Below the pieces are notes generated by a model, which saw nothing but the letters and a program-made list of their open reading frames with translations, did not search any database and was not told the origin of the DNA. A DNA stretch of 32,000 nt from Catelliglobosispora koreensis DSM 44566 (GTDB taxonomy: Bacteria > Actinomycetota > Actinomycetes > Mycobacteriales > Micromonosporaceae), in assembly GCF_000379685.1 (NCBI RefSeq), contig NZ_KB903290.1, forward strand, positions 211,790-243,789, given 5' to 3'. Shown in pieces: positions 6,387-28,651 of the stretch. Both the position numbers and the translations under genes were made by a program. Position 1 is the first letter of the stretch; the number at the start of each line of letters is the position of its first letter.

Positions 6387-7075
6387 TGAAACCGAAACTC
6401 GCCGTGTGGAAGTTCGCCTCGTGCGACGGCTGCCAGCTGTCCCTTTTGGACTGTGAAGACGAGCTACTGGAGATCGCCGCACACGTGCAGATCGCGCACT
6501 TCCTTGAGGCCTCCAGCGCCAGCGTCTGCGGCCCATATGACATCTCGCTGGTGGAAGGATCCGTCACGACACCATTGGATGTGGAGCGCATCCGGCAGGT
6601 GCGGGCAGACTCCAAGCAGCTGATCACGATCGGTGCCTGCGCGACGGCCGGTGGAATTCAGGCTCTGCGCAACTTCGCCGACGTTGACGAGTTCCGGTCA
6701 ATCGTTTACGCGCGACCCGAATTCATCGACACCCTTGCCGAGTCCACGCCGATCGCAGCGGTCGTACCGGTGGACTATGAATTGCGCGGCTGTCCCATCG
6801 ACCGCGGTCAGCTACTCGAGACACTGTCGGCGCTGCTGAATGGGCGACGGCCGCGTGGCCCGCTGCACAGCGTGTGCTTCGAATGCAAAACACGTGGGAC
6901 AACCTGCGTTCTCGTGAAGGGAACGCCCTGCCTCGGACCCGCCACGCAGGCCGGGTGTGGAGCGCTGTGCCCAGCCTATGGCCGCGGTTGCTACGGCTGC
7001 TTCGGCCCGGCCACGGGTGCACCGGCCCACGCCAAGAAGGTGTTCAACCTCTTCAACTCGGGAGCGCCGTCATGA
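6386..7075 (+). CDS. hyhS: [NiFe]-hydrogenase small (delta) subunit, NuoB-like
   Basis: Trimmed to the ATG at 6386 ([28 protein letters not shown]). [10 protein letters not shown] and a C-terminal Cys-rich FeS region are present. Start and stop codons overlap the neighbours on both sides. Confidence 0.9.
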
Positions 7076-8373
7076 CGCACCGTCTCGATCGTTCACTGCA
7101 GGTCAGCGCGCTGTCGCGAGTGGAGGGTGAGGGCGCGATGCGTCTTGTCACCGCAGGCGGCAGGGTGGAGTCGGTAGCGCTGGAGATATACGAGCCGCCG
7201 AGGTTTTTCGAGGCGCTGCTTCGCGGGCGCACCATGGGCGAGGTCACCGACATTACAGCGCGCATCTGCGGCATCTGCCCGGTCGCCTATCAGATGTCGG
7301 CGTGTCACGCGATGGAAGACGCTTGTGGGACCAATATTCCCGTTCCGATACAGGACCTGCGGCGGCTGCTCTATTGCGGCGAGTGGATTTCCAGCCACGC
7401 CCTGCATATCTACCTGCTGCACGCCCCAGATTTCCTTGGCTACGACAGCGTTGTGGAGCTGGCCCAGGCACACCGGCCCCTTGTGGAACGTGGCTTGCGC
7501 CTGAAGAAGGCCGGCAATGCGATCCTGCAAACCGTTGGCGGAAGGGCGATTCACCCGGTCAACGTACGGCTCGGCGGGTTTTACCGTTCGCCGAGCCGGG
7601 CTGAACTACAGGAGCTGGCGGTCACCTTGCGGTCGGCCCTCGATGACGCGCTGGCAACGGTGCGATGGGTGGCGGGATTTGACTTTCCGGACTTCGCCCA
7701 TGAGCACGAGTACCTCGCGCTAGTGAGTCCCGGCTGCTATGCCATAGAATCCGGCGTTCCCACCACCGACCGCGGGCTCAGCTTCCCGGTACGCGATTTC
7801 GAATCGCATGTCATCGAGGAACAGGTACCGCATTCCACGGCCCTGCACGCCCGCCTGGCTGGCCGTGGCCGTTACCTGACAGGCCCGCTGGCACGCTATT
7901 CCCTTAGCCAGCAATGGCTCTCACCGCTGGCCAGGATGGCCGCGGCGCAGGCCGGGCTGGGGGAGACGTGCCGTAACCCCTTCCGCAGCATCGTGGTGCG
8001 TGCCGTTGAGACCGTCTACGCGGTGGAAGAGGCACTGCGACTGATCGACGGCTACGTGCCACCGCAACCGGCGCATGTGGACCTCATTCCCTTATCCGGC
8101 AAGGGTTTTGGTGCGACTGAGGCACCCCGGGGCACGCTATTTCACCGGTACGAGATCTCCGCGTCCGGGGACATTGTGTCTGCCCGGATCACCCCGCCGA
8201 CGTCGCAGAACCAGGCCGCGATCGAGGACGATCTGCGCCTATTCGCCGGGCCTAGGCTGGAACTGGATGACCACGAGCTGGCGCACGCCTGCGAGTCGGC
8301 GATCCGCTGCTATGACCCTTGCATCTCCTGCGCCACACACTTCCTCGAGTTGACTGTGGAGCGGAGACTGTGA
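7072..8373 (+). CDS. hyhL: [NiFe]-hydrogenase large (alpha) subunit, group 3b-like
   Basis: Trimmed to the ATG at 7072. The N-terminal Ni-binding motif [10 protein letters not shown] and the C-terminal DPCISCATH are both present. The size (433 aa) fits cytosolic group 3 enzymes. Confidence 0.92.
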
Positions 8374-8816
8374 TGGGCAAGATTGTCGTTATCGGTGTGG
8401 GGAACCCTTACCGGCGTGACGACGGCGTAGGCCCGGCGGTAATCGACTTGCTGCGGGATCGTCGGCTCGTGGGCGTGCGCCTCGCCACGTCCCTCGGCGA
8501 CACCGCGGAACTCATCGAATTGTGGTCTAGCGCGAGCTTGGCCATCGTCGTCGACGCCATGCGGGCTGTCGCGCCTCGCCCTGGGCGAGTCCACCGGACG
8601 GTCAGCTCACATGGCCTGCCGATGGGTGAGGCGATAGAGCTCGCGCGAGCGCTCGGCCGCATGCCCGATCGCCTTGAGGTGTATGGCATCGAGGTACAGG
8701 AAACCGGTCACGGGCACGGGCTAAGCCCTGACGTGGCGTCAAGTGCGATCGCGGTCGCGCGCCGCATCGCTGTGGAGGTGAAACGCGCATGTGCCTCGCC
8801 TACGCCGCAAAAGTAG
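8373..8816 (+). CDS. Hydrogenase maturation endopeptidase (HyaD/HycI family)
   Basis: [23 protein letters not shown] carries the GNxxxxDDGxG motif. The ATG overlaps the hyhL TGA. Confidence 0.85.
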   Translation: MGKIVVIGVGNPYRRDDGVGPAVIDLLRDRRLVGVRLATSLGDTAELIELWSSASLAIVVDAMRAVAPRPGRVHRTVSSHGLPMGEAIELARALGRMPDRLEVYGIEVQETGHGHGLSPDVASSAIAVARRIAVEVKRACASPTPQK

Positions 8817-8989: not shown

Positions 8990-9857
8990 CGGGCTAGCGT
9001 TAGCTTTTGCCGCAGCCGCCATAAGCGGTGTCGCTGTTTACCTCAACGGTTTCGCGGTCAAAGTCGCCCGCGACGCCACGATTTACACCACAGCCAAGAA
9101 CCTCATCGCAGGACTAGTCATCGTGGGCTTTGTCATGGCGACACGGTCGGCCAAACCTGTCCGCGGCGGTAAACAGCTTGCCACTCTTGGCCTGGTGGCC
9201 CTCATCGGTGGCAGCATCCCGTTCGTGCTGTTCTTCGAGGGGCTCGCACGAGCATCGTCGGTGCATGCCGCGTTCATTCACAAGACGCTGTTCCTCTGGG
9301 TCGCCGTCCTTGCCATACCCCTCCTTGGCGAGCGGCTTCGCCCGGTACACGGATTGGCGGCCGCGATGCTTGTCGGCGGCCTCTTCGTCCTCGAAGGCGG
9401 CCTGACCGGCTTCAGTATCGCCACCGGTGAGGTTCTCATTTTCGCGGCGACGCTGTTGTGGTCGGCTGAAACAGTTGTGGTGAAACGGCTTTTGCACGAC
9501 GTCGCGCCCGCGACAGTGGCGCTGGCACGAATGGCTGTCGGCTCCCTGGCGCTGGTGGCCTGGGTCATTGTTACCGGCCGCTGGCACGCTCTGGTTGCTC
9601 TCCCGGTGCAGGGGTGGCTGTGGGCGGCGGCCACCGGTGTGATCCTCAGCTGTTACGTGCTGACCTGGTTCACCGCTCTGGAACGAGCCCAGGCGCTTGA
9701 TGTGACTGCGATCCTCGTCGCAGGCGCCGTGCTCACGGCTGTCCTGCGGGGTGGATACGTGACCGTCACTGCCGCTACCGGGCTGACGCTGATTGCCGTA
9801 GGCGCCGTCATCACTGCCTTCGCAGCCGTACAATCGCGGCAGCCGGAGCTGACATGA
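8970..9857 (+). CDS. EamA/DMT-superfamily transporter (about 10 TM)
   Basis: 295 aa and highly hydrophobic, with two internally repeated 5-TM halves typical of EamA. It overlaps hypC by 20 nt and shares an ATGA with the next gene. Confidence 0.75.
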   Translation: MSTSHRSGLALAFAAAAISGVAVYLNGFAVKVARDATIYTTAKNLIAGLVIVGFVMATRSAKPVRGGKQLATLGLVALIGGSIPFVLFFEGLARASSVHAAFIHKTLFLWVAVLAIPLLGERLRPVHGLAAAMLVGGLFVLEGGLTGFSIATGEVLIFAATLLWSAETVVVKRLLHDVAPATVALARMAVGSLALVAWVIVTGRWHALVALPVQGWLWAAATGVILSCYVLTWFTALERAQALDVTAILVAGAVLTAVLRGGYVTVTAATGLTLIAVGAVITAFAAVQSRQPELT

Positions 9858-10669
9858 CCGGCGGCGCAGTACCGCACGCGCAACACCGCGGTGGCGGCCG
9901 AGCCGCTGAAGCGGACATAGCCAACGGCGCACTCAGATTCGCGCGCTACGCGTACCCGCCGAATGCGCTGGGCTATTGCGGTCCAGGCGATTCGGCCGCG
10001 CTTCTAGGCTATGCGGAAGCCGGTGCCGTCGATGCTGGGCTCGCCGATCTGGCACAGCGGTTCGCCGGGGCGTGGCCCTACCTGTCGCTCATCGGCGCTG
10101 CTAACCATGACCTCTACCCGCTCGATGACGCGGTCGTGGAAGCGTACTGGCTCGGCAATCCACTGCTTGAGCGGATCGCGCCGCCCCTGCTTGCCGCGCA
10201 TCTGGCGGACCGTTTCGCTGACCGGGCGGGGCCAGCGTGGGACAACCTCTCCGTCCTGGCACACCGTGGAGGCCGGGCGCATCACAACTTCCACGTGTTC
10301 GCCGTCTACCCCTGGGTGGGGATGCTCCGGGCAGGTTTCACCGAGGATCCGTTGCGGGTGCTCAATTCCTGCCGCGTCCGGTGGGGCACCGTGCTTGGTG
10401 TACATCCCGGCTTCGCCGAAGTGTGGGCACAACCGTTGACCTGGAACGGGAACCTTTCGCTCGGCCCTGGCCAGGTTGACGTGGCGACTCTGTCCGCAGC
10501 CCAGACGACTTCTATCAAGAGCGGCGACATGGTGTCTCTGCACTGGGACTGGGTGTGCGAGACACTGACACAGCAGCAGGCCCAACGTTTGCAGAGGTAC
10601 ACGGCCTCCCAGCTGCGGCTGGTTAACGAGGCTCTGGGCTGGCCAGCCACGGCAGCACTGCTGGGCTGA
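9854..10669 (+). CDS. Conserved hypothetical protein (actinobacterial DUF); C-terminal about 80 aa resembles a HypC-like fold
   Basis: 271-aa ORF, ATGA-coupled to eamA, with codon usage like its neighbours. The N-terminal motif is RFARYAYPPNALGYCGP. The C-terminal segment CRVRWGTVLGV...SGDMVSLHWDWVCETLTQQQAQRL parallels the HypC pattern C-x-x-x-P-G-x-V...GD-x-V-L-V-H...L..EEA. Confidence 0.65.
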   Translation: MTGGAVPHAQHRGGGRAAEADIANGALRFARYAYPPNALGYCGPGDSAALLGYAEAGAVDAGLADLAQRFAGAWPYLSLIGAANHDLYPLDDAVVEAYWLGNPLLERIAPPLLAAHLADRFADRAGPAWDNLSVLAHRGGRAHHNFHVFAVYPWVGMLRAGFTEDPLRVLNSCRVRWGTVLGVHPGFAEVWAQPLTWNGNLSLGPGQVDVATLSAAQTTSIKSGDMVSLHWDWVCETLTQQQAQRLQRYTASQLRLVNEALGWPATAALLG

Positions 10670-10680
10670 CGGGCACGGAA

Positions 10681-10848
10681 CTAGCGCAGCAGTCCGAGAA
10701 TCACCCGCAGCGCGGTGGTCCTTCCCGCGCCATTTGGGCCGAGAAAACCATGCACCTCACCAGCCAGGACCTCCAGATCCAGGCCAGCAAGCGCCCGCGT
10801 GCGGCCAAAAGACTTGTGCAGTCCGGCAGTCGAAATGACAACAGTCAT
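10681..10848 (-). pseudogene. Truncated ABC-transporter ATP-binding protein (N-terminal 55 aa only, ends just after Walker A)
   Basis: [55 protein letters not shown] then a stop. The Q-loop, signature motif and Walker B are all missing. The convergent upstream gene ends only 12 nt away, so the rest of the gene is absent rather than merely interrupted. Confidence 0.7.
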
Positions 10849-10928
10849 GCCCGCACGGTATGTCCAGCCGACTGGAGCGTTGAAGAGGCAAAAGACCCAA
10901 ATGGCGAGGCCCATGTCCAGCCGCCGCG

Positions 10929-11552
10929 TCAGGACTGCGCGATCTGCTTAGCGGCTCGTACTCCGATATCGTGGCCGCTGGGGTGTTGTGATGACGCGAG
11001 GGCGAGACCGGCTGCCCATCCGGGTGCGCGTCCGTGTTCTGGGATGACAGCTCGGGATAGATTGTGGCCGCTTGCGGCCAGCAGCCAGGAGACCAGTGAG
11101 TTGGAGTTCCACTGATCACCGGCGTGCAGCTGGTCGCGACCCCAGGTCAGTTCCGGCACGCGTGCGGTCAGGTGCATGACGCGGCGGGCAAGGATTGGGC
11201 TGGTGCTAAGGCGCTGGGGGCTGCTGACGGCTTTGGCGATGTCAGGCAGGATGCCGTTTTTCCAGCACCGCACCTCGTACCGGAACAGGCGGGAGCGGCC
11301 AAGCACCGCCAGCCCGACCGGTCCAGTCGCCACCACTCCGCGATCTGGCTCGTGGCGTCCCCACGCCGGGCCCATCTCGATGACGTATGAGTCGCTGCCG
11401 TCGCCGGCGATTAGTGCGCTGTGGTAGAGGCCGCACGCTACGCGATGCTGAAAACGAGCGGCGAATGCTTTGTACACGCGGCCGCTGAAGGCCACCAGGC
11501 GGTTGCCGTCCGCGCCAAGTGGCAGCCAATACAGGTCAACAAAACTGGTCAT
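10929..11552 (-). CDS. Conserved hypothetical protein (actinobacterial family, function unknown)
   Basis: 207-aa ORF. Motifs such as [18 protein letters not shown] and [11 protein letters not shown] recall a widely conserved actinobacterial hypothetical family. No catalytic motif was recognised. Confidence 0.6.
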
Positions 11553-11813
11553 CGGGCCGACTCAAGCGGTGGCGGTACGGCAAGCGTATTCGCAGCCTCA
11601 TTCGTTGCGCACGCGGTGGATTCGGCACGTTGCTTGATCCCGCCATCGCCTCTGCCTGTTTCGGTGACATCGGCACCCACTGTCCAACTTGAAGATGCTT
11701 CCACTCTGCGACGACCTCCCGCGCGCTTGGGCGGGCAAGGTTGTCCGGTCTCTGCCCAGCGAGTTGGCTGGCCGCTGGCCACGGCGGCCGGTAAGGGAGC
11801 GATGCGACGCGGC

Positions 11814-12329
11814 TCATCGCGGCGCCCGCAAATAGCCGCGCACCGAAGGCAGCAGTGGCAATCCGGCCAGCGCCACTCCGATAGGACCGTAAACTGCTTG
11901 AAGCACTGAGAGCTCAGGCAGATATACCAGCTCCAAAGCGATCCAGGCGATATGGCCAAGTCCAATCAGGATGGTCGCTGACCACGACCAATGGTGTCCT
12001 GTCAGCCGCTCGGCAAAGCCTAGCCACGCCACGTGTGGGCGCCGCAAGACACCGAAGCCCGTGACCAGCGAACCCAGCCCGAACCCAAGACCTAGCACCA
12101 AACCCGGCACGACCCAATTGGTCACGACGGGAATTCCATCAAGCCACGCGGCCGGAGGGGTGTAGCCCAGCATCATCGCCAGCCCGCCCCCAAACGCCGT
12201 GACACCAAGAAACCACAGCACCGCAACGGTGACCGACACTGCCACCGGGCGATGCCTCCGCACTGCGATCGTCGTCATGCCAACAGCCCATATCACCCCC
12301 GTGCTGTCAGGCAGAGGCTTAAGAAGCAA
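11814..12329 (-). CDS. Hypothetical integral membrane protein (about 4 TM)
   Basis: The 171-aa ORF has four long hydrophobic segments. The start could instead be the internal ATG at 12278 (MTTIAV...). Confidence 0.55.
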   Translation of the reverse strand: MLLKPLPDSTGVIWAVGMTTIAVRRHRPVAVSVTVAVLWFLGVTAFGGGLAMMLGYTPPAAWLDGIPVVTNWVVPGLVLGLGFGLGSLVTGFGVLRRPHVAWLGFAERLTGHHWSWSATILIGLGHIAWIALELVYLPELSVLQAVYGPIGVALAGLPLLPSVRGYLRAPR

Positions 12330-14296: not shown

Positions 14297-14532
14297 ATGG
14301 AGATCTCACAAGCTGATTTTGCCGGTGCGCGCACGGACGGCGATCCCGTGATCGACGTGCGCACCTTCACCGAATTCGCATCGGGGCATGTTCCGGGAGC
14401 GTTGCTGATTCCGCTGGATCACCTGCCAATGCGGCTCGCGGAAGTCCCGCAGCCGTGAAAACCACCGTTTCGGTGTGCCGGTCGCATACTCCCCACGGTA
14501 TGCGCCGGGAGCTCATCAGGACCCGCGCATGA
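14297..14532 (+). pseudogene. Degraded/frameshifted single-domain rhodanese
   Basis: In frame, only 53 aa are encoded (MEISQADF...VIDVRTFTEFASGHVPGALLIPLDHL...PQP then stop at 14456-14458). That is the N-terminal half of a rhodanese fold. A VSVCRS active-site-like loop lies in the -1 frame just downstream, and that frame ends in an ATGA overlap with tauE at 14529-14532. Confidence 0.55.
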
Positions 14533-15287
14533 CCGCAGGGGTGCTCTTGGCACTGGCCGCTGCGCTGATAGTTGGGCTGATGCTAGGCGGGCTCGGCGGC
14601 GGTGGCTCGATTCTGGCTGTCCCGGTGCTGGTGTATCTCGCTGGCATCGACCCTAAGCCTGCTATCGCGATGTCCCTGGTTGTCGTCGGGGTCACTGCGG
14701 CGGTGGCGCTAATTCCTCATGCGCGTGCGGGCCGGGTGCATTGGCGTACCGGGCTTTTGTTCGGCGGGTTCGGCATGGCTGGTGCCTACGCCGGCGGGCG
14801 GATCGCTGCGTACCTTCCGGCAGCGGTTCTGCTGGCCGGTCTCGCGGTAATGATGCTTCTGACCGCGGTGGCGATGCTGCGTCCCAGCCGCACCGCACCG
14901 CCCACCGCTGCCGTGCGCCGGCGGCCGCTGGCGAAGATCGCCGTCGAGGGCACCGCCGTCGGGCTGATTACTGGGCTCGTTGGCGCGGGCGGCGGATTCC
15001 TTGTCGTACCAGCGCTGGTTCTTCTAGGCGGACTGTCGATGCCAGCCGCGATCGGCACCAGCCTGCTCGTCATCAGCCTCAAATCTGGTGCCGCCCTTGC
15101 TGGATACCTTCACTCTGTCGCTATTGACTGGCCACTGACGCTGTCGGTCACCGCGCTGGCGGTCGCTGGCAGCCTCATCGGTGCCCGGTTGGCTGGGCGG
15201 ATCAACCCCAGCGCGCTGCGCCGGGGATTCGGATGGTTCGTCATCGTCATGGGTCTTGGTGTCCTGACCGGACAGCTGCTCGCTTAA
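14529..15287 (+). CDS. TauE/SafE-family sulfite/organosulfur anion exporter
   Basis: Trimmed to the ATG at 14529. The protein is polytopic and Gly-rich (LGGLGGGGSILAVPVLVYL and GLVGAGGGFLVVPALVLL), which gives the duplicated TauE motifs. Confidence 0.8.
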   Translation: MTAGVLLALAAALIVGLMLGGLGGGGSILAVPVLVYLAGIDPKPAIAMSLVVVGVTAAVALIPHARAGRVHWRTGLLFGGFGMAGAYAGGRIAAYLPAAVLLAGLAVMMLLTAVAMLRPSRTAPPTAAVRRRPLAKIAVEGTAVGLITGLVGAGGGFLVVPALVLLGGLSMPAAIGTSLLVISLKSGAALAGYLHSVAIDWPLTLSVTALAVAGSLIGARLAGRINPSALRRGFGWFVIVMGLGVLTGQLLA

Positions 15288-15330
15288 CACCCCACACCGT
15301 TTCGCATGACTACCAACGCAGGAGAGAATC

Positions 15331-16713
15331 ATGTTGTTCACCCAGTACTACCTCGACTGCCTATCGCAGGCGTCCTATTTGGTTGCCGATGAGACCACCG
15401 GCCGGGCCGTTCTCATCGACCCACGCCGCGACATCGCCGAATATCTCGCCGACGCCGAGGCCCGCGGACTAACCATCGAAGGCGTCATCAACACGCACTT
15501 TCACGCCGACTTCGTCGCCGGCCACCTTGAGGTCGCCGCCGCTACGGGAGCCTGGATCGGGTACGGGCACCGCGCCGAGACCGAATACCACATTCGAAAA
15601 CTCAACGACGGCGAGCGGATCAGTCTCGGCAAAGTGACTTTGGAGATCATGGAGACTCCCGGTCACACCCCAGAATCGGTCAGCGTCCTGGTTTATGAAC
15701 ACCCGGACGACGCGGTCGCGTACGGAGTCATGACCGGAGACGCGCTGTTCATTGGCGACGTGGGACGGCCTGATCTGCTCGCATCCGACGGTGTAACAGC
15801 CGATGAACTCGGCCGGATGCTTTTCCACAGCGTCCAAGGCAGACTCATGAGCCTGCCGGACCAGGTGCGTGTCTTCCCGGCGCACGGTGCCGGGTCGTCC
15901 TGCGGCAAGAACCTGTCCACCGAACGCCAGTCCACGATCGGCGAGCAGCGCCGGACCAACTATGCCTGCGCACCGATGACCGAAGACAAGTTCCTTGCTC
16001 TGGTAACCGCCGGGCAGCCGGCCGTACCCGGTTACTTCTCCCACGACGCGATGCTCAACCGCTCGGCGCGGGGCCTGCTGAACGTCACGCCGAATGTCCG
16101 TGCCCTCGATACAGCCGAATTCGAGCAGGCACGCCAATCGGGCGCCATCGTCGTAGACGCACGTGATCCGCAAGAGTTTTCCGCAGGGCATCTGCGCGGC
16201 TCTATTAATGTGCCAGCTGACGGAAGGTTCGCCGAAACCGCCGGAAGCGTCCTTCAGCCAAACGAGCCACTCGTGGTCGTGGCACCAGAAGACATCGCCG
16301 AAGAAACCGTGATCCGGTTGGCCCGCATTGGTTTCGATCAGGTGACCGGGTACCTCACCGATCCAGCACGTGCCCTGGCGGAGTTGGACTCGGCCGTGAC
16401 GCCGGCGAGCCGGCTCACCGTCATTGCCCTTCACGAAGCACTCGCTGGCAGCAGCGCCCCGCTTGTCGTCGACGTACGCAACGCGGGCGAACGCGAGCAA
16501 GGCCACATCAGCGGGTCCATCCACATTCCACTCGCCGAGCTGACGGCCAGGTCCACCGAAATACCAAACAACCGGCCTGTCGTTCTGCATTGCGCAGGTG
16601 GCTATCGGTCCTCGGTGGCAGCTAGCGTGCTGCGCCGCAACGGGCACCCGGATGTGTCCGACCTCATCGGTGGATATGCCGCCTGGGAATCTGCCTTCGC
16701 ATCCGCCAGCTAA
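15331..16713 (+). CDS. MBL-fold persulfide-dioxygenase-like domain fused to two rhodanese domains (CstB/Blh-like)
   Basis: 460 aa. The N-terminal metallo-beta-lactamase motif is INTHFHADFVAGH. The middle rhodanese domain lacks a Cys. The C-terminal rhodanese domain has the active-site loop LHCAGGYRSS. An RBS (GGAGAG) is present. Confidence 0.85.
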   Translation: MLFTQYYLDCLSQASYLVADETTGRAVLIDPRRDIAEYLADAEARGLTIEGVINTHFHADFVAGHLEVAAATGAWIGYGHRAETEYHIRKLNDGERISLGKVTLEIMETPGHTPESVSVLVYEHPDDAVAYGVMTGDALFIGDVGRPDLLASDGVTADELGRMLFHSVQGRLMSLPDQVRVFPAHGAGSSCGKNLSTERQSTIGEQRRTNYACAPMTEDKFLALVTAGQPAVPGYFSHDAMLNRSARGLLNVTPNVRALDTAEFEQARQSGAIVVDARDPQEFSAGHLRGSINVPADGRFAETAGSVLQPNEPLVVVAPEDIAEETVIRLARIGFDQVTGYLTDPARALAELDSAVTPASRLTVIALHEALAGSSAPLVVDVRNAGEREQGHISGSIHIPLAELTARSTEIPNNRPVVLHCAGGYRSSVAASVLRRNGHPDVSDLIGGYAAWESAFASAS

Positions 16714-18344: not shown

Positions 18345-19475
18345 ATGGATATCACGCTAAGCATTATCAAGGCCGATACCGGCGGCTTCGTCGGCCACAC
18401 CGCCGTTCACCCGGAGATGATGGCAGCCGCGAGATCCGAGATCACAAAAGCCATCGCCGAAGGGCTATTGATCGATGGCAATGTTGCCGCGTGTGGAGAT
18501 GATATTTCGCTCATCATGACCCATCAGCGTGAGCCCGAGAACGCGGCTATTCATTCGTTTGCCTGGAACGTTTTCCGCGAAACGACAGTGATTGCCAAGC
18601 GCCTCGGGTTGTATGGCGCCGGGCAGGATCTGCTCTCCGACGCCTTCAGCGGCAACCTTCGTGGAATGGGCCCCGGCTATGCCGAGCTGTCGTTCACCGA
18701 GCGGCCTAGCGAGCCAGTGATCTGCTTCCTGGCCGATAAGACGGAGCCTGGTGCGTGGAACTTGCCTCTGTACAAGATGTTCGCCGATCCGTTCAACACC
18801 GCTGGGCTGGTCATCGATGCCAAGATGCACGCTGGTTTCCGGTTTGAGGTGTACGACCTTTATGAGGAGAAGCGCATCTGGTTCGACTGTCCCAAGGATC
18901 TCTACGAGATGCTGATGTTCATCGGTGCGCCTGCTCGTTACGTGATTCACCGGGTCGAGTCGCCAACACTGGGCGAACCGGCGGCGGCTACCTCGACGCA
19001 ACGCCTCTCACTGATCGCGGGCAAGTACGTAGGCAAGGACGATCCGGTGATGATCGTTCGCGCGCAATCCGGATTACCCGCGGTGGGTGAGGTGCTAGAG
19101 CCGTTTGCCTTCCCGCACACGGTGGCGGGCTGCATGCGTGGCTCCCACCACGCACCTCTTACACCGGTCAGCCTCGCCCAAGCTCATCCCAGCCGCTTCG
19201 ACGGGCCGCCGCGTGTCGTGGCGCTCGGATTCCAGCTGCATGAGGGAAAGCTGATCGGCCCTCGCGATCTATTTGACGATGTCGCGTTTGACGGTGCCCG
19301 TACCACCGCCGGAGAGGTCATGGACTATCTGCGCCGGCACGGCCCGTTTGAGCCACATCGGCTCGCACTCGAGGATCTGGAATACACGACGATGCATGAA
19401 CTGGAGCGCCGTCTAGCCGATCGCTGGGAATCGATGGGGGAGCCGGTGCGGGCACAGAAGGGAATCGCGTCATGA
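18345..19475 (+). CDS. fbp: Class V (archaeal-type) bifunctional fructose-1,6-bisphosphate aldolase/phosphatase
   Basis: The 376-aa protein is collinear with my recollection of the Sulfolobus/Thermoproteus enzymes. Shared blocks: SIIKADTGGFVGH, GAGQDLLSDAFSGNLRGMGPG, ADKTEPGAWNLPLYKMFADPFNT, IAGKYVGKDDPVMIVR, MRGSHHAPL, RFDGPPRV. Confidence 0.92.
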   Translation: MDITLSIIKADTGGFVGHTAVHPEMMAAARSEITKAIAEGLLIDGNVAACGDDISLIMTHQREPENAAIHSFAWNVFRETTVIAKRLGLYGAGQDLLSDAFSGNLRGMGPGYAELSFTERPSEPVICFLADKTEPGAWNLPLYKMFADPFNTAGLVIDAKMHAGFRFEVYDLYEEKRIWFDCPKDLYEMLMFIGAPARYVIHRVESPTLGEPAAATSTQRLSLIAGKYVGKDDPVMIVRAQSGLPAVGEVLEPFAFPHTVAGCMRGSHHAPLTPVSLAQAHPSRFDGPPRVVALGFQLHEGKLIGPRDLFDDVAFDGARTTAGEVMDYLRRHGPFEPHRLALEDLEYTTMHELERRLADRWESMGEPVRAQKGIAS

Positions 19476-19759
19476 CCACTCCAACCCATTGGCTTGTCGA
19501 CATCGAGATCATGCCTGAAGACGTCAACCGCATGACCTACGCCCTGGCGAGATTGCGTGACGGGCGAGAAGGTCACGCGTCTGCCATCGAGGCATCTGGT
19601 CACGCACGCCGCAACCCTGCCGATTTTCCAAGGCCAGAACTGGGTGCGGAACTAGCCGCCACCCGGGCGGTGACTGCACTGGCCCGCAAGATGCAGGCTC
19701 ACGCTGCCGAGGACTTGAGCGTCCTGGCCACACCGCCTGCCCACAGCTCGGGATGGTGA
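19472..19759 (+). CDS. DUF1876-family protein (Rv1738/Rv2632c-like)
   Basis: The pattern W-x-VDI-x-I...A-x-A-x-L...G-x-A-R-R-NPAD-x-P-x-P-E-L-G-x-ELA-x-x-RA recalls Rv1738. It is ATGA-coupled to fbp. Confidence 0.7.
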   Translation: MTTPTHWLVDIEIMPEDVNRMTYALARLRDGREGHASAIEASGHARRNPADFPRPELGAELAATRAVTALARKMQAHAAEDLSVLATPPAHSSGW

Positions 19760-22070: not shown

Positions 22071-22090
22071 GTAGGGCCAGAAGTCCTCTA
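22071..22090. promoter_or_regulatory. Candidate DosR/DevR-like box proximal to the esterase gene (GTAGGGCCAGAAGTCCTCTA)
   Basis: The core GGGCCAGAAGTCCT matches at 10/14. It lies 56-75 nt upstream of the minus-strand start at 22015. Confidence 0.4.
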
Positions 22091-22138: not shown

Positions 22139-22158
22139 CAGAGGACCTTAGGCCCTTC
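22139..22158. promoter_or_regulatory. Candidate DosR/DevR-like box proximal to the hsp20 gene (CAGAGGACCTTAGGCCCTTC)
   Basis: The core AGGACCTTAGGCCC matches at 11/14. It lies 58-77 nt upstream of the ATG at 22216. Confidence 0.5.
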
Positions 22159-22215: not shown

Positions 22216-22605
22216 ATGACGGTGCTAGTGCCCCGCATGCTAAGCCGGTTAGAGGATTTGCTCGAGTGGGATGGTCCCGCGACTCATCTGATCCGCGTCG
22301 AGGAGCAGCAGCAGGACGGTGTTTACCGCATTCGCGCGGAGCTGCCTGGTATGGATGCCAAAGACATCAAGGTTTCCGTTGACCACGGCATGCTGATCAT
22401 TGATGCCGAACGCAGCGAAGAGAAGAAGGACAACTACCGCAGCGAGTTTCGGTATGGATCGCTTCACCGAAGCGCAGCCCTTCCCGCTGGCGCCGAGGAG
22501 CAGAAGATCCATGCGTCCTACGACAAGGGGATCCTTGAGATCACGGTGCCGGTGGGCGAGAAGAAGCCTTCCGGGCGCACGATTCCTATCGAGGCCGCCA
22601 AGTAG
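22216..22605 (+). CDS. Hsp20/alpha-crystallin small heat-shock protein (HspX/Acr-like)
   Basis: YRIRAELPGMDAKDIKVSV..GMLIIDAERSEEK....RSEFRYGSLHRSAALPAGAEEQKIHASYDKGILEITVPV closely parallels M. tuberculosis HspX as I recall it. An RBS (AGGAGG) is present. Confidence 0.9.
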   Translation: MTVLVPRMLSRLEDLLEWDGPATHLIRVEEQQQDGVYRIRAELPGMDAKDIKVSVDHGMLIIDAERSEEKKDNYRSEFRYGSLHRSAALPAGAEEQKIHASYDKGILEITVPVGEKKPSGRTIPIEAAK

Positions 22606-22717
22606 AAAACCGGTGGTGCCCGGCTGCGGGCGGTAGCTTGGCGCGGTGGAGGGTGCCGCTTCCAATCGCTGCCCGGCCGGGCGCCATCACCCCAGTTTGC
22701 GGGCGGAGGTTGCTCGA

Positions 22718-24490
22718 ATGTCGTGGGATCCGATAGGCAAGACTGAGACCCAGTGGGCGTCGGCGAACCTGACTGACTACGAAGGGGCGCGGCGAAAGTT
22801 CACGTGGGAGCAGGCACGTGAATATCTTTCCGGGCTACCGGGCGGTCAAGGGCTCAACATCGGTTACGAGGCGGTTGACCGGCACGCCTCCGGCCCGAGA
22901 CGTGACAAAGTCGCGATCCGTTTCCTTGGCGCTGGCGGCGCAGTTACGGAACTGACTTACGCCATGCTTTACCAACTGACGAGCCGATTCGCCAATCTTC
23001 TTGCGTCTCTGGGGGTTCAGCCCGGCGAGCGAGTCTTCTCACTTCTCGGCCGAGAGCCAGATCTTTACGTGGCGGCGCTGGGAACGTTGCGATACCAAGG
23101 TGTTTTCTCGCCACTGTTCGCCGCGTTCGGGCCCGAACCGGTCAGGCAGCGGATCACGGCAGGCGATGGGGTGGTTCTGGTGACTACGCCACGACTATAT
23201 GAGGCGAAGATTGCGCCCATCCGGCACTTGCTTGCGAGCCTGCGTCATGTGCTTGTTACAGGGCAAGGAAAAACTCCGCCAGGCACATCCAGCCTCGACG
23301 ATCTGATGGCAGCCGTTGCGGACCACTTCACTGTCGCTCCAACTGATCCGCAGCAAATGGCACTCCTTCATTTCACCAGCGGCACGACCGGCATGCCCAA
23401 AGGCGCCGTCCACGTCCATGAGGCGGTCGTGGCGCATAACATGACCGCCCGCTTGGCGCTGGACTTGCACCCCGATGACATCTTCTGGTGTACAGCGGAT
23501 CCCGGCTGGGTAACCGGAATGTCCTACGGCATCATCGCCCCGCTAACGCTTGGTGTCACCATCATCGCCGATGCCGGTGAGTTTGACGCCCGTCGCTGGT
23601 ATCAGCAGTTAGCTGAGCAGCGCGTCACGGTCTGGTATACCGCACCTACGGCGCTGCGGATGCTGATGCGGCACCCGCCGGAACTCGCCAAGGAGCACGA
23701 CCTTAGCCGCTTGCGGTTCATCGCCTCAGTGGGCGAACCGCTTAACCCCGAAGCGGTTGCCTGGGGGCAGCGAACGCTCGGCCTGGCTGTGCACGACAAT
23801 TGGTGGCAGACCGAAACCGGGGCCATCATGATTTCGAACTTCGCCGGCCTGGAGGTGCGGCCCGGGTCGATGGGCCGCCCGCTGCCGGGAATCGACGCCA
23901 CCATTCTTGAACGCGGTGAAGACGGACGTGCGCTCATCATCGATGGGCAGGTCCGTCCAGTGCCATCCAATGTGGATGGTGAGCTTGCGCTACGGCCGGG
24001 GTTCCCCTCTATGTTCCGCGGTTACCTGCACGAGGAGCAGCGATACGAGAAATGTTTCGCCGGCGGCTGGTACCTGACTGGCGATCTGGCGCGCTGCGAT
24101 GAAGACGGATATTTCTGGTTCGTTGGGAGGGCCGATGACGTCATCAAGTCGGCCGGGCATTTGATCGGGCCGTTTGAGGTGGAAAGTGCGCTCATGGAGC
24201 ACCCAGCTGTCGCCGAGGCGGGTGTCATCGGTAAGCCGGATCCGGTGGCAGGAGAGATCGTCAAAGCTTTCGTCACCTTGCGCACCGGCAACGTGCCATC
24301 GGACGAGCTGCGCCTGGATCTGCTCGCGTTCGGCCGCCGGCGGCTGGGCGCGGTCGCGCCACGCGAGATCGTCTTCGACCAGAACCTTCCCCACACGCGC
24401 AGCGGCAAGGTGATGCGGCGCCTGCTTAAAGCCCGCGACCTCGGCCTGCCAGAAGGTGACTTGTCCACGTTGGAGAGTGCACATGAATGA
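22718..24490 (+). CDS. acsA: AMP-forming acetyl-CoA synthetase-like ligase (Bacillus AcsA type)
   Basis: Trimmed to the ATG at 22718 (RBS GGCGGAGG). The N-terminus resembles B. subtilis AcsA (NLTDYE...FTWEQA...[11 protein letters not shown]). The AMP motif is [16 protein letters not shown], and the A10 motif is [15 protein letters not shown] with the regulatory Lys. Confidence 0.85.
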
Positions 24491-25430
24491 GTCGTTTGAA
24501 CTTCTTAGGCGGATGCTGCTGATCCGGCGGTTCGAGGAACGGTGCGCAGAGCTCTACAGCAGCCAGGAAATACGCGGTTTCCTGCACCTGTACGTAGGGG
24601 AAGAGGCAGTCGCCGTGGGCGTCATGGCTGAGTTCGGGCCGGAAGACGCGATCGTTTCGACCTATCGCGAGCACGGCCATGCCCTTGCCCGCGGTGTCAG
24701 CCCTGACGCGATCATGGCTGAAATGTTTGGCAAGGCAACGGGATGCAGCGGCGGCCGGGGCGGTTCCATGCACTTGTTCGACGCGTCCACACGTTTCTAT
24801 GGTGGCAATGCCATTGTTGCTGGCGGACTGCCCCTTGCGGTGGGGCTCGCGCTGGCGGACCGGATGCAGGGACGGCCTGTCGTGACCGCATGCTTCTTCG
24901 GCGACGGCGCCGTCGCCGAAGGCGAATTCCACGAGAGCATGAATCTCGCGGCGCTGTGGCGTCTTCCTGTTCTGTTCTGTTGCGAAAACAACCTCTACGC
25001 CATGGGGACGAGGATCGAGCGCACGCATGCGGTAACCGAACTCGCCGTACGAGCCGCGGGCTATGGCATGCCAGCCGAGGTTGTGGACGGCATGGACGTC
25101 CTCGCCGTGCGTGAGGTGACTCGCAAAGCTCTTAAACGGATCCGTTCTGAAGCAGGGCCACAGTTCCTGGAACTACAGACCTACCGGTTCCGTGCACATT
25201 CCATGTATGACCCCGATCGCTATCGCGACAAAGCCGAGATCGCCGAATGGAAACGGCGTGACCCGATCGACAAGCTCGCCGCCACACTCCGTCTGCCAAC
25301 CGAGGACATATCAAAACTGGATACGGAGATAACGGAGGTCATTGACGCGGCTGTGGCATTCGCCCGTACGGCATCGCCGGAGAATGTCGATTCGCTGACC
25401 CGCCACGTCTACAGCGAGGTGCGCAGATGA
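24483..25430 (+). CDS. 2-oxoacid (pyruvate/acetoin) dehydrogenase E1 alpha subunit, TPP-dependent
   Basis: Trimmed to the ATG at 24483 (8-nt overlap with acsA). It contains [32 protein letters not shown] and the TPP motif [37 protein letters not shown]. Confidence 0.88.
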
Positions 25431-26401
25431 GGACGACCTACCGGGAAGCAGTCCGCGAAGCCATACGTGAAGCGATGCGCGCTGATAGCCGTGTCTTTCT
25501 TATGGGGGAAGACGTCGGGAGGTACGGAGGTGCATTTGGCGTGAGCCTGGGGCTGCTTGAGGAGTTCGGGCCGGATCGTATACGCGACACGCCTCTGTCG
25601 GAGTCTGCGTTCACCGGAGCGGGAATCGGCGCCGCTATCGGCGGCATGCGGCCCATCGTGGAAATCATGACCGTCAACTTCAGTTTGCTCGCGCTGGATC
25701 AAATCATGAACAACGCCGCCACGTTGCGGCACATGTCCAATGGCCAAATAGGCGTACCGCTGGTGATCCGGATGACGACCGGTGCGGGCAGGCAGCTCGC
25801 GGCCCAGCATTCGCATAGCCTGGAGGGTTGGTACAGCCATATTCCGGGGCTGCGTATCCTCGCACCGGCCACTGTCGCTGACGCCAGAGGAATGCTCGCG
25901 CCCGCACTTGCCGACCCCGACCCGGTGCTGATCTTTGAACACGGCAGCCTTTACAACACCGAAGGTGAGCTGCCCGAGTCGATTCCTACCTGTGACATTT
26001 CCTCGGCGGCGATCGGGCGGACCGGCACCGATGTCACGGTCATCACCTACGGCGGCACGATGCCAGCCGTGATATCCGCGGCCGATGAGCTTGCCACGCT
26101 TGGGATATCAGCGGAAGTCGTGGACCTGCGGGTGCTGCGGCCGCTAAATGACGCGACCATCATGCAGTCGGTCCGCAAAACACACCGCGCCGTCGTCGTG
26201 GACGAAGGCTGGCGCTCTGGCAGCCTTTCGGCAGAAGTAAGTGCCCGGATCACCGAGCAAGCCTTTTTCGACCTCGACGCACCAGTCATGCGAGTATGCA
26301 CGGAAGAAGTGCCGATACCGTACGCGAAACATCTTGAGGAGGCCGCGTTGCCGCGGCCGGAACGGATCGTGCGCACTGCCAGGGAGCTGGTGGGCAGATG
26401 A
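25427..26401 (+). CDS. 2-oxoacid dehydrogenase E1 beta subunit (transketolase-like)
   Basis: [56 protein letters not shown] is the canonical E1 beta N-terminus. ATGA overlaps occur at both ends. Confidence 0.9.
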
Positions 26402-27624
26402 ACACCGAGTTCCGGATGCCTTCCCTCGGCGCGGATATGGAATCCGGTGTGCTGCTGGAATGGCTGGTTCACCCGGGGGACACTGTCCATAAAGGAGATA
26501 TCGTCGCGGTTGTCGACACCGCGAAGGCGGCCGTTGAGGTCGAATGTTTCACTAGCGGTGTCGTAACGGAGCTGCTCGTCGAGCCAGGCACGCGAGTGCC
26601 GGTCGGCGGGCCACTGGCCGTTATCTCGACGACCACAGGTGAACAACCGCACGCCGCGCCAACCGTGGCGGCACCGGGCGTGGTGACGTCACCGCTTGTC
26701 CGCCATCTTGCCGATCAGCTCCACGTAGATACGGGGACAACACCGGGTACTGGTGTTGGCGGCCGGATCACGCGGGCCGATGTGATCAGGCAGGCCGAGC
26801 CGGTGAGGATTTCGCCGCGGGCACGACGTCTAGCGGCCGAACGCGGCGTTGACCTGCGCACGATAGGAAGTACCACCCCCGGCAGAGTGATCACGGGTGA
26901 CGAGGTGCTCGCGGCCGCAGATGCGCTGGGCCGCCCGGAACATGACGCTAAAGGCATTGACCCGCAAGCGATGCGCAACGCCATCGCACAGCTCATGGCG
27001 AAGTCCAAGAAGGAGATCCCGCACTATTATCTGACCGAGCAGATAGACATGAGCACGGCATTGGCCTGGCTGCACGAGCAAAACCGGGCACTGCCGGTAG
27101 CGCAGCGGATTCTGCCCGCTGCACTGTTACTGCGCGCTGTCGCCTCAGCATGCGCCGAAGTCCCGCAACTGAACGGTTTCTGGATAGACGGCAGCTTCGT
27201 ACCAGCAGGCGGGGTTCATCTGGGGGTGGCGATTTCGTTGCGTGGTGGTGGGCTTGTCGCACCGGCGATACGCGATGCGGGCACGCTGAGCGCACCTGAA
27301 CTGATGGCCGCCCTGCGTGACCTCGTCTCGCGAACCCGTGCCGGGCGGCTGCGGGCCTCCGAGATGAGCGACCCCACCATCACCGTGTCCAATCTCGGCG
27401 ACCAGGGCGCCGATTCATTGCTTGGGGTCATATACCCACCGCAGGTCGCCCTCGTGGGATTTGGGCGGATTGCCGAGCGGCCGTGGGCGTCCGGCGGAAT
27501 GCTTGGCGTCCGGCCGGTGGTGACGGCCAGCCTGGCCGCAGACCATCGCGCGACCGATGGAGTCACCGGAGCCCTTTTTCTGCAAGCGATCGCACGCCAG
27601 CTACAGCTTCCGGAGGAGAAATGA
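26398..27624 (+). CDS. Dihydrolipoamide acyltransferase E2 (lipoyl domain + two PSBD-like repeats + catalytic domain)
   Basis: The lipoyl-Lys motif is [11 protein letters not shown]. Two E3/E1-binding-like segments are [14 protein letters not shown]...GRITRADV and [15 protein letters not shown]...GRVITGDEV. The catalytic motif is ADHRATDG. Confidence 0.88.
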
Positions 27625-27860
27625 ATACCAGCGAGGCCATCGTTTTGGTCCGGCGATGCGTGCATGAAGTGGCGCCTGACATCGACATGGAATCGATCAG
27701 CGACGATGCGCATCTGCAGGAGACTCTGCACTTGGACTCGCTCGACTTCCTGCAGGTAGTGGAGCTATTGAGCAGCCGAAGCGGGATACGTATCGATGAG
27801 GAGGACTATCCTCGGCTGGCTACCATCGCGAGCGCCGCGGCGTTCCTGGCACAGCATTAG
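27621..27860 (+). CDS. Stand-alone acyl carrier protein (phosphopantetheine-attachment DSL motif)
   Basis: Trimmed to the ATG at 27621 (ATGA overlap with E2). The 79-aa protein carries LHLDSLDFLQVVELL, an ACP helix-II Ser motif. Confidence 0.75.
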   Translation: MNTSEAIVLVRRCVHEVAPDIDMESISDDAHLQETLHLDSLDFLQVVELLSSRSGIRIDEEDYPRLATIASAAAFLAQH

Positions 27861-28651
27861 TGTGCTGCGATATCCCGCCGGCTAAACAGTGGGATAGCAG
27901 CCAGCACAAAGGCTGCGGCCGCGGCCACCATCCAAAGGAAGCTCAGGCTGAGCCCGCCGCCAAGGGGGCCTTCACGCAGTGCTTGGTGGAACGGTGATAA
28001 AGGCTGCCAAGGCTGCACGGAGTCCACGATCTGCCCGGCCGCGTAAAGAACATAAGCTGCGACAGCCAGGGTCGTAGCGGCACCGATCGCAAGACTGCGC
28101 CTTCCAGTGATCGCGCCGATGGCCAAGGCCAGGAAGCCAAACTCGATCCCCAGCAGCATCATGGCTGTCGTAGCGGCCGCGAGCGTGGCCGCACCGATAC
28201 CCAGGCCGAAGAGGACCGAACTTACCGCCAGCGTGACGTACACCCCAGCACCGAGCACGGCGACACCGGTGACGAGCGCTGCCGCTTGCTGTAGCAGCAT
28301 CCGACCCGGCGATAAGGGCGTCACGAGGAGCACGTCAAGTGTTCCGGATTCCTCCTCTCCAGCGATGGCCCGCGCACCCCGGCCGATACCGAAAATGATG
28401 AAGAACAGTGGCAGCAGGGCACTGAACAGTTCGGCGTTCATAAAGCCTGTGCCGGTCGTGAACTGCTCAAGATTGAACAGCTTTCGCATCGGTTCCGGGT
28501 AGGCGGCCAGCAGATCCTTCCACGCCGACATGTCGCGAATGGACGGCCAGATAGCCGCTTCGATCACGATAAAGATGATGATCCCGGCAGTCCAGCCGAG
28601 GAGCGCTTTTCGTTGGTCACGCAATGCTTTGAGGTACAGGTTGCGGAACAT
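27857..28651 (-). CDS. ABC-2-type transporter permease
   Basis: 264 aa. The N-terminus MFRNLYLKALRDQRKALLGW is followed by about 6 TM segments. An RBS (GGAGGAGG) is present. It lies downstream of the cognate ATPase. Confidence 0.8.
   Translation of the reverse strand: MFRNLYLKALRDQRKALLGWTAGIIIFIVIEAAIWPSIRDMSAWKDLLAAYPEPMRKLFNLEQFTTGTGFMNAELFSALLPLFFIIFGIGRGARAIAGEEESGTLDVLLVTPLSPGRMLLQQAAALVTGVAVLGAGVYVTLAVSSVLFGLGIGAATLAAATTAMMLLGIEFGFLALAIGAITGRRSLAIGAATTLAVAAYVLYAAGQIVDSVQPWQPLSPFHQALREGPLGGGLSLSFLWMVAAAAAFVLAAIPLFSRRDIAAH

Follow-up and report, generated by a model that had tools for sequence, protein, structure and literature searches.

A conserved five-gene cassette pairs pyruvate-dehydrogenase-like components with a dedicated acyl carrier protein and an acetyl-CoA-synthetase-like ligase in bacterial dormancy islands

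The window analysed here, a stretch of 32,000 nucleotides from Catelliglobosispora koreensis (Micromonosporaceae) with an even base composition (GC 0.605-0.656), carries on its plus strand an operon (22718-27860) in which an acetyl-CoA synthetase (Acs)-type ligase, both subunits (alpha and beta) of a 2-oxoacid dehydrogenase-like E1, a lipoyl-bearing E2 and an acyl carrier protein (ACP) of 79 residues follow one another in series. We find that these five genes form one strictly co-inherited unit in which E2 and ACP are translationally coupled, that the unit is found in several bacterial phyla, and that it mostly lies among genes of the DosR-regulon type. We tentatively propose that it encodes a self-contained, stress- and hypoxia-linked accessory pyruvate dehydrogenase (PDH) module whose E2 core and Acs-type ligase share the dedicated, phosphopantetheinylated ACP as an acetyl carrier, a reading that we consider a reasonable possibility but short of probable.

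PDH complexes are textbook CoA-dependent enzymes, and a PDH variant of primary metabolism with its own ACP and its own Acs-type ligase would be new; in the literature searched, on the themes of DosR/OsdR, PDH, Acs, ACP and acetyl-ACP, we found no paper describing the cassette. It might represent an unrecognised route for acetyl groups under oxygen exhaustion, and it is relevant to the question how soil bacteria that are obligate aerobes sustain ATP synthesis and redox balance in the absence of oxygen. In genome annotation and metabolic reconstructions the cassette appears as a plain PDH with an Acs, the ACP being ignored (public annotations call parts of it 'acetyltransferase family protein' and 'acyl carrier protein'); should the ACP prove to be the true acceptor, such models assign pyruvate the wrong fate under stress. 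Small and self-contained, the cassette is easily reconstituted, so that the question is directly testable.

Gene content and layout of the operon

Successive genes of the operon overlap by 8, 4, 4 and 4 nt, and the gene that follows the ACP, encoding an ABC-2 permease, is convergent, so that the operon ends at the ACP (Table 1). The E2/ACP junction reads GGAGGAGAAATGA, which means that the last sense codons of E2 form the Shine-Dalgarno sequence of the ACP gene; specifically, the PEE codons of the E2 tail (CCGGAGGAG) are also the ACP ribosome-binding site. At the other end of the operon, the ligase start at ATG 22718 is backed by orthologue alignments that begin at residue 1. An initial annotation of the window, made from the sequence alone, had described this gene content with its 4- and 8-nt overlaps and an intact acyltransferase site in E2, and the ORF map and family scans bear out both (the site reads DHRATDG). 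They likewise agree with its statement on what the window lacks, as no E3, ketosynthase, acyltransferase or phosphopantetheinyl transferase (PPTase) domain occurs among the 30 window ORFs scanned against Pfam. A Pyr_redox-type ORF is also absent from the window and does not recur in the flanks of about 80 cassette loci. E3 is often encoded elsewhere, and the peripheral subunit-binding domains (PSBDs) of the E2 imply that one is recruited. A mycobacterial origin of the window was rejected, as its ACP shares 100% identity with an annotated C. koreensis protein.

Table 1. Coordinates of the cassette, its flanking features and the hydrogenase operon in the window. The ORF ranges of the hydrogenase genes overlap as listed, so their start codons are approximate.
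Feature	Position	Strand	Remarks
DosR/OsdR-like boxes	3941, 3956 (3941-3971)		adjacent pair upstream of hydrogenase operon
[NiFe]-hydrogenase FeS beta-like subunit	4014-5126		
[NiFe]-hydrogenase FAD/NAD gamma-like subunit	5370-6386		ORF
[NiFe]-hydrogenase small subunit	6041-7075		ORF
[NiFe]-hydrogenase large subunit	6874-8373		
[NiFe]-hydrogenase maturation protease	8319-8816		
DosR/OsdR-like box	12335		
DosR/OsdR-like box 1	22073-22088	+	AGGGCCAGAAGTCCTC; 2 mismatches to AGGGMCNNNNGKCCCT; upstream of HSP20
DosR/OsdR-like box 2	22141-22156	+	GAGGACCTTAGGCCCT; upstream of HSP20
HSP20 / alpha-crystallin (HspX-like)	22216-22605	+	PF00011, 78 bits
GC-rich hairpin, no U tail	22612-22688	+	-67.7 kcal/mol, z = -2.0; arms 22614-22624 / 22676-22686
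Ligase	22718-24490	+	AMP-binding and AMP-binding_C domains; 590 aa
E1 alpha	24483-25430	+	E1_dh; 8-nt overlap with ligase stop
E1 beta	25427-26401	+	NF006667; 4-nt overlap at each end
E2	26398-27624	+	lipoyl PF00364, E3_binding PF02817 (two stretches), 2-oxoacid_dh PF00198
ACP	27621-27860	+	PF00550; LDSLD with Ser40
ABC-2 permease	27857-28651	-	next gene after ACP, convergent

Conservation of the cassette across phyla

A pattern scan of one genome per species recovered relatives of the ACP in 229 species genomes. The order ligase, E1 alpha, E1 beta, E2, ACP is found in 71 loci examined, the window included, and the 4-nt overlap between the E2 stop and the ACP start in 71 of 82. Eight further loci all carry the five genes, seven of them in the standard order and one, in Krasilnikovia cinnamomea (L086, 9248-13813), in the order E1 alpha, E1 beta, E2, ACP, ligase, so that the ligase is still linked. 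When sampled from the E2 side, three of three orthologues from other genera have a small ACP gene at the E2 stop. The initial annotation had named an ACP gene not conserved with E1 and E2 as grounds for giving up a functional link between them; the adjacency has proved to be strongly conserved.

The ACP profile gathers 702 representatives (50% identity clusters, E <= 1e-10), all of them small stand-alone proteins, and a profile built from more distant members reaches at least ~8,000 clusters at 90% identity. All five distant relatives followed to their loci belong to the same five-gene cassette; four of them carry the annotations Candidatus Rokubacteria, Blastocatellia, Gaiellaceae and Candidatus Binatia, and the fifth is a metagenome-derived record. 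Carriers of the cassette include Streptomyces, Kitasatospora, Arthrobacter, Micromonosporaceae, Rokubacteria, Acidobacteriota and Binatia. For all five proteins, the pairwise distances are mutually correlated (r = 0.68-0.90), which is what joint inheritance would produce.

In the set that yielded the 71 collinear loci, the exceptions are shortened contigs or visibly decayed copies (L004, L017, L026, L071) and two orphan ACPs (L020, L033). Decay takes the form of an internal deletion that has left the ACP attached to a piece of the ligase or of E2, or of a frameshift in the E2 tail, and some lineages are losing the module. Two long matches of the ACP profile, P0247 and P0271, each consist of an E2 fragment that a deletion or frameshift has fused to the ACP; we rejected them as functional fusions because they represent decayed cassettes. 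The orphans, which we also rejected as a sign of another partner, have no adjacent E1/E2 or ligase; at least the one in L020, still followed by an Rv2632c-like gene as in L001, looks like a deletion remnant, while the ACP of L033 has no Pfam match. A complete cassette in L025, a bin assigned to Gemmatimonadota, encodes a ligase 68% and an ACP 53% identical to those of the window, and reflects either horizontal transfer or mis-binning.

The carrier protein

The ACP matches PF00550 with 28.7 bits (cut-off 20.8), and its AlphaFold2 model consists of four helices (pLDDT 95) with Ser40 at the N-terminus of helix II. Among its relatives the Ser of the DS[LM]D motif is invariant and a PExDY-like motif is conserved across phyla. 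All 15 NCBIfam ACP matches lie below their cut-offs (the top one with 35.9 bits against 66), which assigns it to no named equivalog (AcpP, AcpM or others), and the closest solved relatives of its profile are fatty-acid-synthase-type ACPs and mitochondrial ACPs that serve as subunits of respiratory complex I. Judged by sequence and model, the ACP looks functional and specialised.

The E1 and E2 components

E1 alpha exceeds the cut-off of TIGR03182 (436.5 bits, cut-off 393.85), its translation carries the thiamine diphosphate (ThDP) motif GDG-X26-NN, and its best PDB match is human PDH E1 alpha, with 250 bits as compared with 124 for branched-chain 2-oxoacid dehydrogenase (BCKDH). E1 beta scores 402 bits against NF006667 (cut-off 321). 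The best PDB match of E2 is mammalian PDH E2 (160 bits), while the protein falls under all NCBIfam E2 cut-offs (208 bits against 445); the acetoin E2 model NF011457 covers only its residues 3-134 and does so with 74 bits (cut-off 307). All 62 of 62 sequences have the lipoyl Lys43, and the DH pair of the catalytic site does not vary. In the window, the E2 has two PSBDs in tandem (residues 98-131 and 137-174, together encoded at 26689-26919), and so do 59 of the 62 E2s of the actinobacterial set; in the distant cassettes the E2 is shorter, apparently with one PSBD. The family tail is short (LLQxPEEL/K, with the window E2 ending in LPEEK, 27600-27624), whereas cage-forming E2s have a longer hydrophobic C-terminal end, and the oligomeric state of the cassette E2 may differ from the classical 24- or 60-mers.

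By these features the module would belong to the 2-oxoacid dehydrogenase superfamily, with E1 and E2 predicted to be of PDH type. It resembles the mitochondrial and alphaproteobacterial alpha2beta2 PDH in passing the E1 cut-offs and in its lipoyl Lys, PSBDs and CAT-like domain with DHRxxDG. It differs from classical PDH in its two tandem PSBDs, its short E2 tail, an E2 below equivalog cut-offs and the lack of a linked E3, as well as in the ACP coupled to E2, the obligatory Acs-type ligase, and its place in dormancy or stress islands instead of central-metabolism operons.

These assignments also bear on the idea that the cassette encodes an AcoABC-type dehydrogenase of acetoin, or of another 2-oxo or 2-hydroxy ketone, accompanied by an acetyl-CoA synthetase that recovers acetate from the released acetaldehyde, as modelled on acoE or acsA-acu contexts. 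The subunit sizes (E1 alpha ~315-335 aa, E1 beta 324 aa, E2 ~400 aa) recall those of Bacillus AcoABC, which we take to be similar in size and architecture, and the nearest structure to the ligase, 9g79, is presumably Bacillus AcsA, whose gene we assume to adjoin acetoin-utilisation genes. We nevertheless regard this as very unlikely: E1 alpha lies above the PDH equivalog cut-off and has human PDH E1 alpha as its best structural match, the acetoin model matches E2 only at its lipoyl end, no aldehyde dehydrogenase, AcoR or AcoX recurs nearby, and the ACP is left unexplained.

To our knowledge, the only precedent that works like the proposed transfer from E2 to ACP is provided by QncN/QncL/QncM of quinocarcin and SclQ1-4 of scleric acid biosynthesis. 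In these systems, the C2 unit on the lipoyl arm goes to a dedicated ACP and not to CoA; the Qnc E1 is a transketolase acting on ketose phosphates, QncL fuses E1 beta-like and E2 parts, and the genes lie in nonribosomal peptide synthetase (NRPS) clusters, of which the scl cluster carries a PPTase (PMC6335953). The initial annotation had drawn this analogy, and as an analogy of function it holds, since the parts are the same (a ThDP-dependent E1-like enzyme, a lipoyl-bearing E2 acyltransferase domain and a dedicated small ACP). It does not extend to kind. The cassette has a PDH-type E1, separate E1 beta and E2 genes, and an integral acetate-type ligase that Qnc/Scl lack; it is found in several phyla, within dormancy islands, and no NRPS, polyketide synthase or PPTase gene is present in the window or recurs in the flanks of about 80 loci. 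That it makes glycolyl- or hydroxyethyl-ACP from ketose phosphates as an NRPS precursor is accordingly an option to which we give next to no credence, and a role in Qnc-type secondary metabolism was rejected for want of a biosynthetic context. The cassette does not appear to be of the Qnc/Scl kind, but may work alike at the step from E2 to ACP.

The ligase and its A8 signature

Against the NCBIfam model of acetate-CoA ligases, NF003313, the ligase scores 863.6 bits (cut-off 729), and its closest PDB chain is 9g79, an acetyl-CoA synthetase of 572 aa (533 bits). The core ANL motifs are all present, namely the acetate-pocket Trp, the hinge Asp and the A10 Lys. Among 62 cassette ligases, the motif WWQTETG is kept in all and the Lys of SGK (A10) in 61. 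The second Trp of WWQTETG aligns with Trp414 of Salmonella enterica Acs, a position at which Trp limits the pocket to acetate.

What sets the cassette ligases apart is the A8 motif, a beta-hairpin of the Acs fold that enters the active site for the thioester step. Its Arg (R526 in S. enterica) is present in five of five Acs-type PDB references and replaced in all 70 cassette ligases examined, across several phyla, by Leu in 69 and by Met in one, within the motif GHL[IV]G. The 70 comprise a first set of 62 actinobacterial and related ligases (61 Leu, 1 Met) and those of eight further cassettes from other genera and phyla (all Leu); in the window, the motif reads KSAGHLIG (SAGHLIGP being residues 479-486, 24152-24175). 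Of the CoA-contact residues of S. enterica Acs compared with the ligase, only this Arg-to-Leu change stood out, and R191/R194 are not comparable, as 9g79, the nearest reference, is also without that loop. The ligase would thus be a member of the short AcsA-type family by score and core motifs, yet it lacks one of that family's conserved residues and, unlike AcsA-type synthetases, is always encoded next to E1, E2 and ACP. This suggests an acetate-type enzyme specialised at the thiol-acceptor step, and the A8 replacement appears to mark a ligase subfamily that has become specialised along with the cassette. The A8 Leu is also a ready marker for locating the cassette.

Genomic neighbourhood

Among the 65 'long' loci, defined as those of at least 15 kb, 50 have at least one neighbour of the DosR-regulon type. 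The recurrent neighbours comprise universal stress proteins (USPs), HSP20 (in 13 of the long loci), CBS-pair proteins, Acg-like nitroreductases, Rv0571c-like phosphoribosyltransferase-hydrolases, Rv2632c-like and Rv2004c-like proteins, GH65 enzymes, CtpF-like ATPases, pyruvate phosphate dikinase (PPDK)/phosphoenolpyruvate synthase (PEPS), V-type ATPase operons and group-3b hydrogenase subunits. USP genes are also among the neighbours of four of the five distant cassettes, and a USP gene is the next one after the ACP in L087 and L088, where it overlaps or abuts it, and in L091, 117 nt downstream.

The island in the window contains the HSP20 gene, three genes for tandem-USP proteins, a CBS pair, an Rv2632c-like gene (19472-19726), an Rv0571c-like gene and a group-3b hydrogenase. 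The latter is encoded by an operon of five genes (4014-8816), four for subunits whose best match is the Pyrococcus sulfhydrogenase, on which the group 3b assignment rests, and one for a maturation protease; it resembles the DosR-controlled Hyh of Mycobacterium smegmatis. The window yielded neither a DosR-like response regulator nor a DosS/T-like kinase.

V/A-type ATPase operons adjoin the cassette in seven long loci and in Nocardioides pacificus (L002, L004, L005, L012, L023, L025, L035, L085). Such ATPases are unusual in these phyla and may link fermentative ATP to the maintenance of membrane potential. In L088 (9505-13628), a Blastocatellia metagenome-assembled genome, the cassette is adjoined by an NAD-linked formate-dehydrogenase/hydrogenase-like pair (molybdopterin and NADH-binding 51K-like subunits).

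Upstream region and DosR/OsdR-like boxes

The OsdR consensus of Streptomyces, AGGGCCGATCGGCCCT, matches the DevR box of M. tuberculosis (PMC5069765). We searched the 350 nt upstream of the ligase in 69 non-redundant loci with the pattern GGGMCNNNNGKCCC, taking 200 dinucleotide-preserving shuffles as the reference. Exact sites number 12, as compared with 1.26 +/- 1.12 in the shuffles (maximum 4), and sites with at most one mismatch 53, as compared with 21.9 +/- 4.7; typical ones read GGGACCTTCGGCCCTG and lie 49-110 nt before the ligase. In C. koreensis, two boxes precede the HSP20 gene, the second of which shares the core ACCTT..GGCCCT with the boxes found 49-110 nt upstream of the ligase in other genera. 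The initial annotation had spoken of a DosR-box island. This stands in so far as boxes are enriched upstream of the ligase across genera, but the window-wide count at two mismatches is not above chance (11 against 7.0 +/- 2.8) and no box lies in the 112-nt spacer between HSP20 and ligase; the significance of the boxes comes only from the cross-genome test. The link to hypoxia and dormancy that it had suggested is supported by this enrichment, by the DosR-regulon-type neighbours of most long loci and by the island genes of the window.

The HSP20 gene is probably the first of the transcription unit in C. koreensis, and an HSP20 gene lies directly upstream of the cassette on the same strand in L031, L035 and L084 as well. 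The spacer has no canonical plus-strand terminator with a T-run and no Rfam match in a scan for leaders and riboswitches, in line with the earlier statement that no terminator was recognisable there; what that statement passed over is a long GC-rich hairpin filling most of the spacer, possibly a U-less terminator, an attenuator or an RNA-stability element. Read-through from HSP20 into the ligase is plausible, and co-transcription likely but not certain.

A shared acetyl carrier and its alternatives

In the mechanism that we propose for the accessory PDH module, E1 alpha/beta would decarboxylate pyruvate and reductively acetylate the lipoyl-Lys43 arm of E2, and a housekeeping E3 from elsewhere, docked via the PSBDs, would reoxidise the arm and yield NADH. 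The catalytic domain of E2 would then hand the acetyl group to the thiol of holo-ACP, instead of CoA or in preference to it. The ligase, in what we see as the more likely direction, would act on acetyl-S-ACP, AMP and pyrophosphate (PPi) to give acetate, ATP and holo-ACP. On balance, pyruvate would be converted to acetate, CO2, NADH and ATP without drawing on the CoA pool, and sinks under common control, for instance the group-3b hydrogenase of the window, would take up the NADH. One ACP shared by E2 and ligase would be the simplest account that uses all five genes.

As the oxidative decarboxylation by E1 is irreversible, E1/E2 must be the loader of the ACP in such a scheme. Three considerations favour the ligase as the unloader: a producer-consumer pair explains the obligatory linkage better than two alternative suppliers would, acetyl-ACP can only prime fatty-acid synthesis and not feed malonyl units, and neighbours such as the NAD(P)-linked hydrogenase, V-type ATPase and PPDK/PEPS would suit a cell that gains ATP by fermentation and has to dispose of NADH. 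That no linked consumer of acyl-ACP recurs also favours a module that both loads and unloads its carrier: when the flanking ORFs of about 80 loci were clustered, no ketosynthase, acyltransferase, thioesterase, PPTase or E3 recurred. The context is in keeping with hypoxic energy metabolism, and expression of the cassette would be expected to rise in hypoxia. Beyond the hydrogenase of the window, which could be an NADH sink for the PDH-like module, the formate-dehydrogenase/hydrogenase-like pair of L088 is another possible one.

The complete scheme, in which an ATP-forming ligase with its A8 Arg changed to Leu unloads acetyl-ACP and so closes a carrier-protein-tethered form of substrate-level phosphorylation, asks for more than a shared carrier, and we consider it rather unlikely as a whole. 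Were it true, obligate aerobes of several soil phyla would have a CoA-independent fermentative source of ATP when oxygen or nutrients are short, and NADH sinks under the same control (group-3b hydrogenase, formate-dehydrogenase-like enzymes) would keep redox in balance. Precedents can be named for each of its steps. The transfer from E2 to ACP has one in the Qnc/Scl systems, and the disposal of reductant has one in hypoxic M. smegmatis, where the DosR-controlled Hyh hydrogenase acts as a redox valve (bioRxiv 2023.09.11.557286). Ligation of acetate to a carrier protein exists in primary metabolism, as CitC (acetate:SH-ACP ligase) and CitD show in citrate lyase, where a carrier-protein-bound thiol is acetylated at the expense of ATP; CitC falls outside the ANL enzymes, CitD is no four-helix ACP and the prosthetic group differs, so that these families are unrelated to the ligase and ACP of the cassette. 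For the direction of the ligase, the precedent is Acs1 of Syntrophus aciditrophicus, an AMP-forming Acs that makes ATP and acetate from acetyl-CoA, AMP and PPi in an energy-limited anaerobic setting (PMC4992975, PMC13404658). It differs from the cassette ligase in using acetyl-CoA, in owing its bias to the CoA-binding loop (G196/T197) and not to A8, and in having no ACP or PDH linked to it.

Several observations weigh against a carrier-tethered pathway. Where S. enterica Acs has R584, a residue binding the 3'-phosphate of CoA, the ligase has retained a basic side chain, and its score exceeds a curated acetate-CoA ligase cut-off, so that it may simply use CoA; compared with human E2, the motifs of the cassette E2 look canonical, with no obvious loss. 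No fusion of the ACP to E2 or ligase was found among the best 120 E2 homologues or the best 150 of the 702 ACP-profile representatives, and the mirror-tree partial correlations of the ACP with E2 (0.31), E1 alpha (0.33) and ligase (0.06) link it to the first two and not to the ligase, but are too weak to decide between E2 and ligase as the protein with which it co-evolves. An AMP-forming ligase can run towards ATP only if PPi is supplied and AMP/ATP is high, and a source of PPi is not evident in dormant cells. NADH made by a PDH is unwelcome in hypoxia unless a sink is present, and a hydrogenase lies within 10 kb of the cassette in only ~7 of the 65 long loci. In hypoxic M. smegmatis, moreover, carbon goes to triacylglycerol (TAG) (bioRxiv 2023.09.11.557286).

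A serious rival is an ordinary CoA-dependent accessory PDH and an acetyl-CoA synthetase that both make acetyl-CoA, the one from pyruvate and the other from acetate, for hypoxic metabolism such as the storage of fatty acids and TAG, with the ACP as an accessory. The ligase and both E1 subunits score above the respective acetate-CoA ligase and PDH cut-offs, the catalytic motifs of E2 are canonical, and hypoxic M. smegmatis directs carbon into TAG under the control of DosR. The ACP might in this case donate octanoyl groups for the lipoylation of E2, act in regulation, or play a structural part like the ACPs within mitochondrial complexes, and its nearest solved relatives do include the complex I subunits. 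The first of these roles was rejected, since a ligase pocket closed by Trp cannot load octanoate, and a housekeeping ACP could serve LipB. More generally, this explanation does not say why a dedicated, Ser-invariant ACP should be translationally coupled to E2 in 71 of 82 loci, or why no intact cassette of any phylum has lost it; nor does it account for the phylum-spanning Arg-to-Leu change in the motif of the thioester step. We judge this CoA-based explanation somewhat improbable.

A third use of the same parts is the one put forward in the initial annotation. Here the ACP would be charged from two sides, by the ligase starting from acetate and by E1/E2 starting from pyruvate, acetoin or acetate, and acetyl-ACP would be exported to anabolic enzymes encoded elsewhere, for example to prime the synthesis of fatty acids or storage lipids independently of CoA. 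The conserved linkage of E2, ACP and ligase supports a shared ACP, the Qnc/Scl systems provide a precedent for transfer from E2 to ACP, and TAG storage is part of the DosR response. The same annotation had noted the lack of a ketosynthase and an acyltransferase in the window, however, and no ACP-using enzymes lie downstream; in the flanks in general, no ketosynthase, acyltransferase or FabH-like gene recurs in about 80 neighbourhoods, and a wax ester synthase/diacylglycerol acyltransferase (WS/DGAT) gene lies near the cassette in only 2 of the 65 long loci. Acetyl-ACP would be a primer only, and as malonyl-CoA still needs acetyl-CoA, no bulk carbon would reach lipid by this route; two alternative suppliers of one product need not be strictly co-inherited; and activation of acetate costs two ATP equivalents in an energy-limited state. 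The priming of storage lipids is thus a weak proposal, and export of acetyl-ACP to anabolism is, in our estimate, unlikely. The two loci with contextual support for a storage-lipid link are L017 and L086 of Krasilnikovia, and in the latter the ligase is followed by a gene for a PQQ-like beta-propeller and then by the WS/DGAT gene, two genes downstream of the cassette.

Other genes of the island

Upstream of the cassette, the window contains a gene for an archaeal-type bifunctional fructose-1,6-bisphosphate aldolase/phosphatase (NF041126, 556.8 bits, cut-off 520; PF01950), which together with the Rv2632c-like gene that directly follows it spans 18345-19726; this is an unusual gluconeogenic enzyme for an actinobacterial dormancy island. 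Two paralogous CNNM/CBS/CorC transporter genes, a Spo0M-like gene and a DUF6390 gene are located at 8-3895 and 9854-12329. Several ORFs of ~170-220 aa, all on the minus strand (3239-3895, 10929-11552 and 11814-12329), have no Pfam match, and the first two have no NCBIfam match either. Finally, a TauE/SafE sulfite-exporter-like gene followed by a metallo-beta-lactamase-rhodanese fusion of persulfide-dioxygenase-like architecture (14475-16713) places sulfur-handling genes within the same island.

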